A stretch of DNA of 51,524 nucleotides, taken from positions 1-51,524 of the forward strand of contig DKAX01000097.1 in the NCBI GenBank assembly GCA_002450975.1, read 5' to 3'. Of the stretch, positions 43,882 through 48,055 are shown piece after piece. Both the position numbers and the translations under genes were made by a program. Origin of the DNA: Proteobacteria bacterium UBA6915 (GTDB lineage: Bacteria; Pseudomonadota; Gammaproteobacteria; UBA6915). Within the stretch, counting starts at the first letter, position 1. Each line of letters begins with the position of its first letter. The notes under the pieces were generated by a model. The model had not been told where the DNA came from, made no database searches, and saw only the letters and a list, made by a program, of their open reading frames with translations.

Positions 43882-45276
43882 ATGAAACCTGAATTTGAAT
43901 CAAACAATGTGTTTTATACCATACCGGTTGAGCAGTCGGAGTCCCGATTGAATCGCTGGTTCGATATGCTGTCTTCTCCAGGTGTAACCTTTGCCGGAAT
44001 GCCGGCGCCACCTTATCTGGTCTTTGGTGTTACCGGCATTACCTGCGCCATATGCGTACTCACCTTTCTTGCATTGCGCGCCGAAATTTCACTTGTTGTC
44101 GTCGCCCTGGCAAGTGTAGTCAGTATATTTGTATTCCTGCTGGGTGGCTTGCTGCGTCAATTAGTCGCGCGTGGCCCGCATATCCTAATTGAGGATTTGC
44201 TCCTGGTGCTTGGTTCGACTGCCTTGTTAGCCTGGGTGTTCGGAGTGGAAACTCTTCTTCTGTTGGACAGATTAATCATTTCTCTGGGTGTGTTCCTTGT
44301 GTTCGGTCGACTGGGTTGTCTGACATCCGGTTGTTGCCATGGAAAACCGGCATCTATTGGTGTCAAATATGACAACCGTACCTTTCCCGCAGCACTCATT
44401 GGTATACGCCTGTTTCCCATTCAACTCGTCGAGGCGATTTGGATTGCGGTGATAACAGGTTCGGCATACCAGTTGCTGGGTAGGTCTGGCGACAGTTTGT
44501 CGTTTTGGCTGATCGCCTATAGCGCCGGACGCTTTGTTTTTGAGTTTGCGCGTGGCGATGTAAAACGTAAGATTTTCGGACCATTATCAGAAGCGCAATG
44601 GTGGTGTGTGTTTATTATCGGCGGCGTGCTCGCTGTTTATTTCGTATTGGCTTCAATGCTCACGGTTGAAAGAGTCAGTCTCCTGATCGTCGTGACAACT
44701 ATTATATTTGCCTCGATGTCGCATCGCTACTGGCTGGCCATCGAGGTTTCCGGTATTCCGGAAAAGGAAATACCGGCTTGGTACAGTTTTGTCAGTGAAT
44801 TGCGCACCAGTGCGTCATCTGGCAGAAAGCCGATTCGCAGAGCGAGTCCTCAGCAGGGAATCGAGATCGAATTGGAGGTGGATGCATCTGATGCAGGATC
44901 AACACTCCACTCATACAGGATATTTTCGCAGCAATGGAGTGAGGCTATATTTGTCGCCGGCTTTCTTCTGCAATCACTACCAGAGCATCGCGTTGTACGT
45001 ATCAACTGGGAGCAAGAGGCGGTCGTGTTATGGGTTTGGGTGGCGGAACATGAGTCTGTTGCAGAATACGATAGGGAAATCTTGCATCCGCGTCACGTTA
45101 TATTGCGTGCCAGCGCTTTTGCGAACTATTTATGTATAAACGGTTTTCAGACGCGTGGCAATACGGATAGTGAAGTGGTCCAGGCGACACAAGCGGAACG
45201 TGGCGCGGAATATTTCCGTCCTCATTCACAGCTTGGTATGAACAGGGCGGTTACAACTGTGAGGAGCAAGCAATGA
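43882..45276 (+). CDS. Polytopic membrane protein with an Lgt-like (prolipoprotein diacylglyceryl transferase family) domain and a soluble C-terminal domain of about 200 aa
   Basis: Several TM helices. Lgt-family-like blocks: FGRLGCLTSGCCHGKP, LFPIQLVEAIW, AYSAGRFVFEFARGD, LSEAQWWC. The ORF-track start at 43840 is TTG; in-frame ATGs are at 43870 and 43882. Confidence 0.55.
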   Translation: MKPEFESNNVFYTIPVEQSESRLNRWFDMLSSPGVTFAGMPAPPYLVFGVTGITCAICVLTFLALRAEISLVVVALASVVSIFVFLLGGLLRQLVARGPHILIEDLLLVLGSTALLAWVFGVETLLLLDRLIISLGVFLVFGRLGCLTSGCCHGKPASIGVKYDNRTFPAALIGIRLFPIQLVEAIWIAVITGSAYQLLGRSGDSLSFWLIAYSAGRFVFEFARGDVKRKIFGPLSEAQWWCVFIIGGVLAVYFVLASMLTVERVSLLIVVTTIIFASMSHRYWLAIEVSGIPEKEIPAWYSFVSELRTSASSGRKPIRRASPQQGIEIELEVDASDAGSTLHSYRIFSQQWSEAIFVAGFLLQSLPEHRVVRINWEQEAVVLWVWVAEHESVAEYDREILHPRHVILRASAFANYLCINGFQTRGNTDSEVVQATQAERGAEYFRPHSQLGMNRAVTTVRSKQ

Positions 45277-47213
45277 CTACAACGAAACGCCTGCAAGAGG
45301 AGGACAAAAAACGCAAACCGTTTACTCAACGGGTATGCCGTGGTTGTCAGGAGGAAAAAAAGGAAGTACCCGAAGAACTGGAAGAACTCGACGAACTGAC
45401 TCAAGCCAGGACCATACAGCGCTTTCCTCTGGGGAACTCGGCAGCGGAGCCCCTCGAAGGAGATTCCGGGGGCTTCTTCGCGCAGCTACGTAAGGACGTG
45501 GTTGCCGTAAGCAACAAGGAATTAAAGGAGGTCGGGCGTACCGCTGATGATTGCCCTTATATTGCCCGTTGGCTTGGACACTACCAGCGTAGCGACGTCG
45601 CCCATTTGCGACGTGCAATCCAACGCTATGCCAAGCCGGCGGAACAAACTGAGGAGGCGATGCGTGAAGCGGTGGTTTCACGTGTGCGCTCGGCCATCAG
45701 AATATGGAAACAGACTGGTCAGATTACAGGCATACCTGAATTAGCGACCGAGGCTGATTCTTCACCTGCGCAGGATGGGATGGCGTCCCTGGGGCCAGGT
45801 AACTCCCTGGATACTGGAATACGCAACCGTCTTGAGAGTGCATACGGCTCTTCACTGGAAAATGTACGGGTGCATACCTCAAACAAGGCGGCCGCGATGG
45901 CAACTGGGGCTTCAGCCCATGCGCTGACTGTGGGACGGGATATTGCCTTTGCCGAAGGCAAGTACCAGCCGGGTACCCCGGCCGGCGATCTGCTCATCGG
46001 CCATGAAGTCGCCCATACCATACAACAGGATGAGAAGGAACATCCCGCAAATGCATTGACGCCGTCGAACGAACAGTCACTGGAACGCGAGGCGGACGCC
46101 GCCGCCATCGGTGCAGTCGGTGGTATGGCCGGGACGGTCAGACCGAAACCGCGGCCACAACGCGGTCTACATATGCAGCGATGTGGTGGAGCTGACTGCA
46201 CGCGCTATGGGCCATCCGGATTGCGCATGGATATCGAGGCGAAACGGGATTGTGGGCTGCTAGATCCTCCGTTTCGTCCTCCCGGTGTGGGGCCGTTTCC
46301 TGTGTATTCACCGGATGATGACTTGTCGAATCGAACACTGGATCCATCCTGTTACCCAAGTCCATCACCATTTGATCCAGCAGAGCCGATGATTGCGGGA
46401 ATACCTGAAACACCACCTGCTGCGATGGGAGCTCTAGTACAAGGACAGTGGTGGGCACCATTAGTTCGGCCTGGCGTTAGGCCAATGCCTCCAGTTCGTC
46501 CAATGCCTCCGATTAGACCGTTACCACCATTACCGCCGGTTCGACCGATACCGCCAATTCGTCCGATACCGCCGGTTCGACCTGCACCACCTGTTAGTCC
46601 AAGACCATTTCCGCCGGTAGTGCCAAGGCCGTTTCCTCCGGTAGTCCCGCAACCCACGCCGCAACCAGTACCTGACATACGACCGGATGATCAACGTTAT
46701 ATTGATCGACTTACCAACCCGCAAAGAGAATATTACGACATGCTGAGGCGGGCGGAGCGTCTCGAACCTGATACCGGGCCTGATCAGGATCCTGCGCTTG
46801 ATCGTACGCCGGAACGTGCACCGGATGAGGAGGAAAACAGGGATGATGATTGTATTGGCTACGATACCCCACACCTTGGAGGGCATGCGGAACACAACAA
46901 TTATGCGATCGCCAAGTCGGGTAGTCTGTTTGATTATCATGTTGAGCCAAAGGTGGCGTTACCGATCAACTACGACGGCAAAACGCCGGGCAGCGCTTTG
47001 GTATGGGAAGTAAAGGTAAGGCATGGGTGGTTTTTTAACTGTGCAAAGGCCTCACTCAGGGACTTGACGTTACGCCGCTGGGATGCTCAAAAAGATCATG
47101 GCATGGCCGTCGCCGCAGAATGCGGATATACCCATGTCTGGGCATGTAAAGATCGTTGGGTAGCAGATGTTATTCGACAACGCTGGAATGGCACACCACC
47201 GGTAGTATCATGA
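45273..47213 (+). CDS. DUF4157 (HExxH) protein with a proline-rich repeat linker and a C-terminal PD-(D/E)xK-like domain; candidate CIS effector/toxin
   Basis: DUF4157 core: LESAYGSSLENVRVHTSNKAAAMATGASAHALTVGRDIAFAEGKYQPGTPAGDLLIGHEVAHTIQQ (HEVAH at 46002-46016). SLEREADAAA follows. A Pro-rich block lies at 46464-46673. The C-terminus has HLGGHAEHNNYA...INYDGKTPGSALVWEVKVR. GAGGAG RBS and an ATGA overlap with the upstream gene. Confidence 0.8.
   Translation: MTTTKRLQEEDKKRKPFTQRVCRGCQEEKKEVPEELEELDELTQARTIQRFPLGNSAAEPLEGDSGGFFAQLRKDVVAVSNKELKEVGRTADDCPYIARWLGHYQRSDVAHLRRAIQRYAKPAEQTEEAMREAVVSRVRSAIRIWKQTGQITGIPELATEADSSPAQDGMASLGPGNSLDTGIRNRLESAYGSSLENVRVHTSNKAAAMATGASAHALTVGRDIAFAEGKYQPGTPAGDLLIGHEVAHTIQQDEKEHPANALTPSNEQSLEREADAAAIGAVGGMAGTVRPKPRPQRGLHMQRCGGADCTRYGPSGLRMDIEAKRDCGLLDPPFRPPGVGPFPVYSPDDDLSNRTLDPSCYPSPSPFDPAEPMIAGIPETPPAAMGALVQGQWWAPLVRPGVRPMPPVRPMPPIRPLPPLPPVRPIPPIRPIPPVRPAPPVSPRPFPPVVPRPFPPVVPQPTPQPVPDIRPDDQRYIDRLTNPQREYYDMLRRAERLEPDTGPDQDPALDRTPERAPDEEENRDDDCIGYDTPHLGGHAEHNNYAIAKSGSLFDYHVEPKVALPINYDGKTPGSALVWEVKVRHGWFFNCAKASLRDLTLRRWDAQKDHGMAVAAECGYTHVWACKDRWVADVIRQRWNGTPPVVS
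46464..46673 (+). repeat. In-frame proline-rich tandem repeats inside the DUF4157 gene
   Basis: The peptide reads VRPGVRPMPPVRPMPPIRPLPPLPPVRPIPPIRPIPPVRPAPPVSPRPFPPVVPRPFPPVVPQPTPQPVP. This corresponds to degenerate ~18-nt units followed by two ~24-nt PRPFPPVV units. Confidence 0.85.
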
Positions 47214-48055
47214 GAGAGAATATGACAACACCACAACTTAACGCATGGCCGTGTCGAGCCTATGCTCAGCGGCTACCCGGTACAGGCAGGCCACTGCATC
47301 AGGTGGCGCAACAGGTCGCGAAACGACTGCCTGACCTTCTTCAATGTGAACCTTTCGATTGGGCCGTGACGCTTCACAATGAACAACCGCGGGCGAGGCA
47401 GGAGGCGCTGAACGATAAGTTGTTTCGCAACCTGGTAAGCGGCGAGGTTCTTGGGCTTGCCAACCGGCCGGAAAACTGGCTCGGACTGTTTTCCGCCTAC
47501 CAGTCGATCCCGGCTAGGGTGGAGGAGATTTACCTGTCATTACCCGGACCGCATCAGCCGCAGCCGACTGATCTGAATGGAATGATGGGCCTAATCGGGA
47601 TGTTCGGGGTTGAGCTCCAAGCGCGTATCGCCTATGTAGAGGACGCTGCGCTGATGCAGTGTTATACCGGCAGACGATTCCACGAGCTGTCTCTTGCCGA
47701 TGTTGCGGGAATCCTGCCACCGGGTCTGATTACCGAGACCGAATGGTTGCCTCCTCCTGGTGTGGCCGGCACATTGCCTGAGTTACTTGCACCGCGGGAA
47801 TTTGACCTGTCGAGAGTTCCTTCAGGGGTAATGTGGGTCAATTGGTGGACATCGGACCAAATCGAAACACTGGGGCGTGAGCGGGTTAGAACAGCTGGTT
47901 GGGAAAAGACTATTGAGGCGGCAGACGGTTCGATGACATTGGCGGCGCTGCCGGGGCCGGTAGACCTGACCCGTAAAGAAGATGTCGACAAACTGAGCTC
48001 AATCGTCCAAGCACTGGACTTGCGGAACAAACAACTGGAGGTGAGCCTGATCTGA
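47210..48055 (+). CDS. Hypothetical protein, candidate cognate immunity protein for the upstream toxin
   Basis: The ATGA start overlaps the toxin stop (an alternative ATG is at 47222). It is cytoplasmic-looking with no signal peptide. The immunity role is inferred from position only. Confidence 0.4.
   Translation: MRENMTTPQLNAWPCRAYAQRLPGTGRPLHQVAQQVAKRLPDLLQCEPFDWAVTLHNEQPRARQEALNDKLFRNLVSGEVLGLANRPENWLGLFSAYQSIPARVEEIYLSLPGPHQPQPTDLNGMMGLIGMFGVELQARIAYVEDAALMQCYTGRRFHELSLADVAGILPPGLITETEWLPPPGVAGTLPELLAPREFDLSRVPSGVMWVNWWTSDQIETLGRERVRTAGWEKTIEAADGSMTLAALPGPVDLTRKEDVDKLSSIVQALDLRNKQLEVSLI

Follow-up and report, generated by a model that had tools for sequence, protein, structure and literature searches.

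The 51,524-nucleotide (nt) stretch of DNA analysed in this study (the window; contig DKAX01000097.1, positions 1 to 51,524, GenBank assembly GCA_002450975.1) comes from the gammaproteobacterium Proteobacteria bacterium UBA6915 and carries the operon of a contractile injection system (CIS) at 21190-50034. Near the 3' end of this operon are two coupled genes on the forward strand, a cargo/toxin gene encoding a protein of 646 amino acids (aa) at 45273..47213 and a smaller gene directly downstream at 47210..48055. The data presented here suggest that the 646-aa protein is likely a CIS cargo effector ending in a PD-(D/E)xK nuclease, and that the next gene encodes its immunity protein. The effector domain (residues 527-646) is very probably a DNA-cutting PD-(D/E)xK nuclease of the DUF6310/Tox-REase-5 superfamily, and the downstream gene very probably encodes the protective antidote of the toxin. 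The downstream protein is read as cognate immunity because it tracks the C-terminal domain of the toxin and not the delivery module, because orphan partners and toxin remnants occur, because it evolves faster than the toxin, and because both predicted folds match a known effector-immunity pair.

The probable C-terminal toxin domain

The toxin domain at residues 527-646 (46851..47210, forward strand) was assigned from a DUF6310 score of 24.9 bits, an AlphaFold2 (AF2) model and Foldseek matches. The original prediction, made by a model from the letters of the window, had proposed a D...ExK signature of the restriction-endonuclease fold for this part of the protein. Its motifs stand where they had been placed (HLGGHAEHNNYA at residues 534-545, INYDG at 565-569 and WEVK at 578-581), D568, E579 and K581 are invariant in relatives, and a restriction-endonuclease fold is predicted. 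Profile searches against the Tox-REase families had been put forward as a check, and the window domain has no match to Tox-REase-5 (PF15648) at E<=1 and belongs to a DUF6310-like sister family. Against DUF6310 (PF19829; cutoff 27) the 24.9 bits were obtained with the isolated domain, and the whole protein scored 20.9 bits.

A profile of four close homologues of the domain was searched against 1.84 billion cluster representatives, which gave 204 representatives (clustered at 50% identity) at E<=1e-3, of which 110 remained at E<=1e-10. In all of the 150 matches listed, the domain was at the extreme C-terminus, in proteins ranging from 52 to 2722 aa. A Pfam scan of 107 relatives found eCIS_core in 55, DUF6310 in 48 (E<=0.01), Tox-REase-5 in 13 (E<=0.01, best 6.5e-7) and RHS in three; besides eCIS_core and RHS/YD-shell proteins, the relatives include proteins whose N-terminus is an LQR leader only. 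The same C-terminal toxin domain is therefore found on different N-terminal trafficking modules, as in polymorphic toxins. One relative (P0100) scored 25.6 bits against Tox-REase-5 (cutoff 25) and matched DUF6310 over the same region, and another (P0056) scored 27.6 bits against DUF6310. On sequence, the window domain appears to be a close outlier or sister of DUF6310, within a continuum that joins DUF6310 and Tox-REase-5.

C527, D568, E579, K581 and C617 are invariant in an alignment of 39 sequences, in which Y544, A545, D554, G569 and Q606 are at least 90% conserved, and the D, E, K and Q columns remain at least 90% conserved across 107 full-length relatives. The candidate catalytic residues are the invariant D568 (46974-46976), E579 (47007-47009) and K581 (47013-47015), all on the forward strand. 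The published signature of Tox-REase-5 consists of Y, FDG, EAK, Y, Q and W (PMC3482391), and the window domain fits it with Y544, Y-D568-G, E579-V-K581, Q606 and a C-terminal W, which are invariant or nearly so. Additionally, the invariant Cys pair, C527 (46851-46853) and C617 (47121-47123), points to either a disulfide or a metal site.

The AF2 model of the toxin domain, built from the 39-sequence alignment, has a predicted local distance difference test score (pLDDT) of 94.8 and a predicted template modelling score (pTM) of 0.87. Its topology is b-a-b-b-b-a-b-a, which includes the canonical a-b-b-b-a-b core, with D568 at the third strand or immediately behind it. The strand after that carries ExK, and the long helix that follows carries Q606, which is the canonical PD-(D/E)xK arrangement. 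When this model was compared with the PDB using Foldseek, the two best matches were chains of TseT (PA3907), 9oz0_B and 7dym_A, with probabilities of 1.00 and 0.94, a template modelling (TM) score of about 0.55 and E-values of 6.9e-3 and 7.7e-2. Lower matches, all with E > 1, were BstEII, Mus81-Eme1, Can2 and Vsr. Structure prediction followed by Foldseek had been put forward as a check on the last ~125 residues, and it found similarity to a nuclease fold with TseT as the best match. Taken with the DNase activity that is reported for effectors of the Tox-REase-5 type, the fold and the invariant residues suggest that the domain would cut DNA using D568, E579, K581 and a divalent metal. TseT and TseTBg are listed among the nuclease effectors of type VI secretion systems (T6SS), and crude preparations of TseTBg (17tse/38tse) broke down both lambda and plasmid DNA (bioRxiv 10.1101/835710).

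The downstream partner

The downstream gene (forward strand) had been proposed as the cognate immunity gene, and comparison of loci agrees with that proposal. A scan of reference genomes (one genome per species) with a four-sequence alignment of the toxin domain returned 11 toxin-domain loci, in Pyrinomonadaceae, Paractinoplanes, Pilimelia, Flavobacterium (four), Amycolatopsis (two), Actinokineospora and Kofleriaceae. A homologue of the downstream protein lies directly after the toxin open reading frame (ORF) in 11/11 of these loci, which span four phyla. It starts at or a few bases from the end of that ORF in every case, and the matches have E-values mostly of 1e-39 to 1e-57, and of 1e-13 to 1e-15 in Flavobacterium. 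The same arrangement was found in Rhodococcus aetherivorans, where a 269-aa gene begins one base after the stop of the toxin homologue P0007 and matches the window partner by BLASTP at 3e-21. Integrase and transposase genes surround that locus and no CIS gene is within reach; the longer Rhodococcus ORF has an LLDPPYRPP motif and a proline-rich stretch without DUF4157, and the Pilimelia locus also has no CIS gene within reach. Both of the RHS/YD-shell relatives that were looked up (P0077 and P0058) are followed by overlapping genes, of 280 and 270 aa, whose products carry the family motifs VPNG[VI]WW[VI]NFWD...AATE. The partner thus follows the toxin domain at 11/11 loci, on 2/2 RHS proteins and in Rhodococcus.

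The comparative-genomic marks that define a polymorphic toxin-immunity cassette have been described (PMC3482391). At these loci the adjacent gene tracks the toxin domain, and both orphan partners and decayed toxin remnants occur. The toxin gene of Streptomyces sp. KLMMK has decayed to a DUF4157 fragment with the final ~35 residues of the domain, and the partner gene behind it is intact. Orphan partner genes are found on two further contigs (L001 and L003), neither of which has a toxin domain anywhere. Across 12 loci the divergence of the toxin correlates with that of the partner (Mantel r 0.54, p 0.008). The partner has diverged further, with 24-36% identity to the window protein vs 31-54% for the toxin. 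A first search of 5.8 billion clusters found three homologues of the downstream protein, and two word-indexed searches of the 5.8-billion-protein collection found nine other clusters. The possibility that the downstream protein is a conserved structural component of the CIS was ruled out, as the protein is rare (nine other clusters) and some of its loci have no CIS genes.

The family of the partner differs from the one first suggested. Imm52 had been named as an example of the immunity families to be searched. The window protein has no Imm52 match, and neither has any partner homologue scanned with Pfam; it belongs instead to a DUF5953-like sister family. Against DUF5953 (PF19378; cutoff 25) the homologue P0009 scored 30.4 bits and the partner at locus L010 scored 37 bits, with others at 13-23 bits. 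The window partner is tied to the DUF5953-matching homologues by profile, with E-values of 1e-39 to 1e-57.

An AF2 model of the partner, built on a shallow alignment of nine sequences, has a pLDDT of 84.2 and a pTM of 0.84. Its best Foldseek match is PA0821/TsiV (7drg; E 3e-6, probability 1.0, TM 0.53-0.56), which has been treated as the immunity protein of the PD-(D/E)xK effector TseV (PMC9635880). The model also matches BPSL2088 (4rho, probability 0.99) and TsiT/PA3908 (7dym_B and 9oz0_A, with probabilities of 0.96 and 0.95 and a target-normalised TM of 0.54-0.55). The model of the toxin and that of the partner thus lead, independently of each other, to the two components of the same TseT-TsiT complexes (7dym and 9oz0). 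These links of the toxin domain to TseT and of the partner to TsiT come through fold comparison only, because sequence searches of solved structures gave nothing meaningful; for the partner profile (A6) there was no meaningful match among the solved-structure sequences.

Gene spacing carries less of the argument than originally proposed. The toxin gene has a GAGGAG Shine-Dalgarno sequence 8 nt before its ATG and was called as an ORF with Pfam support. From the ATG at 47210 the downstream gene would encode 281 aa, and from the ATG at 47222 it would encode 277 aa. The second start was chosen by the gene caller of the public protein collection and has a purine-rich GAGAGAGA just 5' of it, and the start at 47210 is without a Shine-Dalgarno-like sequence. 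With either start the gap between the two genes is 8 nt or less. The ATGA overlap that had been taken as the usual mark of an immunity gene is present at 47210-47213, but it is not specific to this junction. The toxin ATG at 45273 overlaps the stop of the gene before it (also ATGA), and at 48053-48057 the stop of the downstream gene overlaps the start of the ATPase gene (TGATG). Tight coupling is a trait of this stretch of the operon and not specific to the pair. Because the neighbouring junctions are coupled too, the overlap is only weak evidence for an immunity gene, and it was dropped as an argument.

It had also been argued that an immunity gene implies a payload active against bacteria. 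This does not follow from the immunity gene alone, because a nuclease that is made in the cytoplasm and active there needs an inhibitor whatever its target. However, the orphan immunity genes of L001 and L003 fit interbacterial exposure, which gives antibacterial use some independent support.

Several of the related loci have features of their own. The orphan genes (L001 1538-2975; L003 2072-3251) are each preceded by a small gene of conserved sequence for a Cys-rich predicted lipoprotein of 94-99 aa, and the L001 pair adjoins a gene that was judged by eye from its sequence to be HtpG-like (Hsp90-type). The Rhodococcus locus (L002 4557-10612) contains an 893-aa gene with an LQRLAGNQA-type leader, and a fragment that we read as transposase-like (ORF 7765-8223) lies between that gene and the toxin ORF. 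The actinobacterial copies (L002, and L009 7281-8834 in Streptomyces sp. KLMMK) show decay or reshuffling. In Flavobacterium (L013-L016, ~3640-8260) there are three tandem DUF4157 genes, with the toxin-partner pair as the middle unit, and together they make up an array of alternative cargos. L016 also has a gene for an Afp15-like ATPase ~5 kb downstream, at 11742-12314.

Alternative explanations

In one alternative the downstream protein does not inhibit toxicity but serves as a chaperone or adaptor specific to this cargo, maintaining the effector in a loadable state and passing it on to the ATPase. Its gene does lie between the cargo gene and the gene for the loader ATPase, and effector-specific chaperones are known in the T6SS, for example those encoded by the chaperone and co-chaperone genes of the TseT operon (bioRxiv 10.1101/835710). 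However, an adaptor should go with the delivery module, and the partner instead accompanies the C-terminal domain, both on RHS proteins and at the loci of Rhodococcus and Pilimelia, where no CIS gene is within reach. The occurrence of orphan partners without any toxin, and a predicted fold that matches the immunity proteins TsiV and TsiT and not known adaptors, further argue against a chaperone, and this explanation is improbable. There is a similarly slim chance that the pair acts inside the producer and is not injected into other cells, as a suicide module or one resembling a toxin-antitoxin system. Stress or an attacking phage would then free the nuclease, and a CIS that stays within the cell, as in Streptomyces, may be involved. 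In favour of this, a toxin-antitoxin origin has been suggested for Tox-REase-5/Imm52 pairs (bioRxiv 10.1101/835710), the locus has CIS13-family genes and an unusual gene for a membrane protein similar to prolipoprotein diacylglyceryl transferase (LGT), and short standalone versions of the domain exist (P0014, 121 aa; P0025, 141 aa), though a good number of the short proteins probably represent pieces cut off by short contigs. In the window, however, the domain is fused to DUF4157 and a cargo-typical N-terminal region within a CIS operon; about half of the relatives have the same DUF4157 fusion, and others are on exported RHS toxins.

The remaining alternative concerns the activity of the domain, which may have a nuclease-like fold without being a DNase (an RNase, a nucleic-acid binder or a protein with another activity), with the partner regulating it. 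The PD-(D/E)xK superfamily includes RNases and inactive members, and an invariant Cys pair is not a standard feature of nucleases. However, the D, the ExK and the Q are invariant or nearly so across ~100 divergent relatives, which is the pattern of an active enzyme, and the nearest characterised proteins, TseT and TseTBg, are T6SS nuclease effectors, of which crude TseTBg degraded DNA from both lambda and plasmids. We regard this explanation as very unlikely.

Several results weigh against reading the pair as a nuclease effector and its immunity protein. The window protein is under the Pfam threshold for DUF6310 and has no Tox-REase-5 match, and the downstream protein has no Pfam or NCBIfam match, including Imm52 and DUF5953, even at E<=10. 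When the toxin-domain profiles (A3 and A5) were searched against the sequences of solved structures, there was no meaningful match. The structural matches are modest (TM 0.47-0.56), with weak E-values of 6.9e-3 for the toxin and 3.7e-2 for TsiT. The Mantel correlation would arise from simple co-inheritance too. Finally, the invariant Cys pair is unusual for a nuclease that acts in a reducing cytoplasm.

With the pair taken as a CIS cargo effector and its immunity protein, we infer a model that covers nuclease activity, toxicity, neutralisation by binding, loading and target identity. The packing of the operon suggests that the toxin and immunity proteins would be co-expressed. By its pairing with the toxin and by analogy with TsiT, the immunity protein would bind and silence the nuclease domain in the cytoplasm of the producer; TsiT is reported to interfere with the oligomerisation of TseT (Wen et al. 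2021). By analogy with AlgoCIS, the adjacent AAA+ ATPase may next engage the cargo through its N-terminal region and feed it into the tube, and the immunity protein would presumably, as a matter of speculation, be left behind at loading. Contraction would then release the nuclease into the target cell, where it would cleave DNA via D568, E579 and K581. The literature raises the hypothesis that the HExxH domain of DUF4157 might act in processing or refolding.

The probable cargo protein, its operon and related systems

The original prediction described four parts in the 646-aa protein, a charged N-terminal region, DUF4157 with HEVAH, a proline linker and a C-terminal domain, and all four were found. 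The N-terminal region (residues 1-170, 45273..45782; all features of this protein are on the forward strand) is highly charged over its first ~65 residues, which include a CxxC; residues 1-45 are MTTTKRLQEEDKKRKPFTQRVCRGCQEEKKEVPEELEELDELTQ. The region is probably disordered and, by analogy with the N-terminal domains (NTDs) of AlgoCIS Cgo1 and Cgo2, is a candidate loading sequence. It is followed by eCIS_core/DUF4157 (PF13699) at residues 179-255 (45807..46037; E 3.2e-25, 88.5 bits vs a cutoff of 22), with the HEVAH zinc motif at residues 244-248 (46002-46016). The protein passes the gathering score of PF13699, has HExxH, lies in a CIS cluster and has the layout of NTD, DUF4157 and C-terminal domain (CTD), as a cargo-type member of that family would. 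Fusions of an N-terminal DUF4157 to a C-terminal toxin with long linkers between them are typical of the toxins of extracellular contractile injection systems (eCIS) (PMC8213781).

After a second small Cys-containing stretch (residues 263-328), an LLDPPFRPP motif at residues 329-337 (46257..46283) marks the start of a pre-toxin cassette common to close relatives. The proline repeat tract, composed of [VI]RPxPP-type hexapeptides, covers residues ~396-476 (46458..46700). Residues 396-487 are 40% Pro, and Tandem Repeats Finder detected two short DNA arrays at 46531-46582 (period 18) and 46595-46647 (period 24). The linker length of ~70 residues given earlier is correct for the dense part, and a wider Pro-rich zone begins at residue 329. 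Between this tract and the toxin domain, residues 477-526 (46701..46850) comprise a conserved helix (QRYIDRLTNPQREYYDMLRRAERL, residues 477-497), which aligns with the LTPxQRxYL helix of the relatives P0005-P0007, and an acidic linker (residues 498-526).

These elements recur in relatives. LLDPPFRPP-type motifs are found in 13 relatives with or without DUF4157, mostly ~170 aa (~150-230) before the C-terminal domain, and are present in the Rhodococcus, Paractinoplanes and Amycolatopsis loci too. A QRxYL-type helix lies 110 aa or less upstream of the C-terminal domain in 18 relatives, at ~40-55 aa where positions were listed. The toxin domain thus appears to travel in a larger pre-toxin cassette with an AGLLDPP[FY]RP motif and a 'QRxYL' helix, both with and without DUF4157 (window 46257-46850; L011, L013, L017, L018, L019, L010 and L002). 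In most relatives the cassette has a short hydrophobic stretch followed by 'WPSxTAPxWMDExNPITGxPY', which looks membrane-active or translocation-like; the window protein has proline hexapeptide repeats in place of the hydrophobic segment.

The CIS genes identified with Pfam and NCBIfam encode a Pvc16-type cap, two sheath paralogues, three tube-family proteins, a spike, PAAR-like, gp25, Baseplate_J and P2_I proteins, two CIS13-family proteins and an Afp15-like AAA+ ATPase with a winged-helix domain (WHD). The ATPase gene (48055..50034, forward strand; Pfam AAA 2e-24, WHD 1.3e-11) lies directly downstream of the pair and is context for it. By analogy with Alg15, the ATPase is the presumed cargo loader. 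The search for a second DUF4157 gene in the window found none, and the 646-aa gene is the single one. The sheath paralogues are of 939 and 457 aa and are encoded, with the three tube-family genes, in the regions 22515-28488 and 37319-42048. A 319-aa gene lies between the two CIS13-family paralogues, and two genes of the CIS operon (319 aa and 579 aa) had no match in Pfam or NCBIfam.

Directly 5' of the toxin gene, and joined to it by the ATGA overlap, is a gene for a multi-pass membrane protein (43840-45276, forward strand; 478 or 464 aa). Residues 128-266 of this protein give a partial LGT match, and a C-terminal part of ~200 aa is unannotated. CIS operons do not usually have an LGT-like gene, and this one may have to do with anchoring to the membrane or with release. 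Upstream of the operon, a LuxR/GerE-type response regulator gene (19897-20619, forward strand) lies ~570 nt 5' of the first CIS gene (the Pvc16 cap at 21190), with a 116-aa ORF in between, and is a candidate regulator of the CIS cluster. Past the ATPase gene (window 50206-51524 onward) a longer public contig (L004 12985-20834) has three more genes. In order, they encode a 1604-aa protein that matches metallo-beta-lactamase weakly (22.6 bits; cutoff 22.7), a 294-aa protein with traces resembling a zinc ribbon and, on the opposite strand, a second WHD-AAA+ ATPase.

Among characterised systems, the closest are TseT-TsiT (PA3907-PA3908) of Pseudomonas aeruginosa and TseTBg-TsiTBg of Burkholderia gladioli, which are Tox-REase-5 nuclease effectors with Imm52-type immunity. 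As in TseT-TsiT, the window has a C-terminal PD-(D/E)xK toxin with residues resembling the Y/FDG/E[AV]K/Q/W pattern and an immunity gene directly downstream with a TsiT-like predicted fold, and relatives of its toxin domain are also found on RHS proteins. However, the window pair has no sequence-level similarity to TseT-TsiT, lies in or near DUF6310 and DUF5953, and has the invariant Cys pair. TseT is delivered by T6SS PAAR/VgrG, whereas the window toxin would be delivered as an eCIS-type DUF4157 cargo fusion. The 2012 catalogue lists for Tox-REase-5 the type II (T2SS), type V (T5SS) and type VI secretion systems and PrsW, and not the Photorhabdus virulence cassette (PVC) (PMC3482391). A second comparison is with TseV-TsiV (PA0822-PA0821; TseV/TsiV of Salmonella bongori), T6SS effectors of the VRR-Nuc PD-(D/E)xK type with their immunity proteins. 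PA0821 ranks first among the structural matches of the partner, and its effector too is of the PD-(D/E)xK nuclease type, but the model of the window toxin shows no preference for VRR-Nuc structures and the delivery system is a different one.

On the delivery side, the 646-aa protein resembles AlgoCIS Cgo1 and Cgo2 in having an NTD, DUF4157 and a variable CTD, and its gene likewise lies in a CIS operon near an AAA+ ATPase gene. It differs in its C-terminal domain, and the part of the AlgoCIS work available here mentions no immunity gene for Cgo1/2. The disordered NTD of Cgo1/Cgo2 is described as the loading signal, DUF4157 as dispensable for loading, and the AAA+ protein Alg15 as mediating cargo loading in the authors' model (bioRxiv 10.64898/2026.05.27.728243). 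The window protein also resembles the eCIS-associated toxins (EATs) of Geller et al. 2021, which include the restriction-endonuclease-like EAT9 and the EAT5-immunity pair, in its link to DUF4157, its place in the 3' part of the operon, its long linker, its nuclease-type payload and the adjacent immunity gene. EAT9 is itself no DUF4157 fusion, the DUF4157 gene lying three genes upstream. Most validated EATs are without a recognisable immunity gene, whereas pairing in the window family is systematic.

The general picture of polymorphic toxins and eCIS is unchanged by this study. DUF4157-toxin fusions, nuclease payloads, occasional eCIS immunity genes and Tox-REase-5/Imm52 pairs in the T6SS are already described. 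What is modestly new is a divergent DUF6310-like/DUF5953-like branch, about half of whose members are on CIS cargo proteins, with an unusually clean immunity pairing; no paper mentioning DUF6310 or DUF5953 was found in the literature library searched. Provisional functions can be proposed for both families, with DUF6310-like domains as Tox-REase-5-like nuclease toxins and DUF5953-like proteins as their immunity. In surveys, most eCIS-associated toxins lack a recognisable immunity gene, which has been called a puzzle (PMC8213781; PMC3482391), and the window locus is a clean computational counter-example, with toxin and immunity genes inside the operon beside the gene for the loader ATPase. The cargo, immunity and ATPase genes form a compact three-gene set for the study of eCIS cargo safety and loading.

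A broader and more doubtful idea is that DUF6310 and DUF5953 form a widespread nuclease-immunity clade, sister to Tox-REase-5/Imm52, with CIS cargo proteins as its main vehicle and with the pair as a handle on how toxin and inhibitor are separated at loading. If this is true, the order of cargo, immunity and ATPase genes would offer a way to study how an eCIS toxin is kept harmless and then parted from its inhibitor, for example by an ATPase that strips off the immunity protein while it unfolds the cargo.

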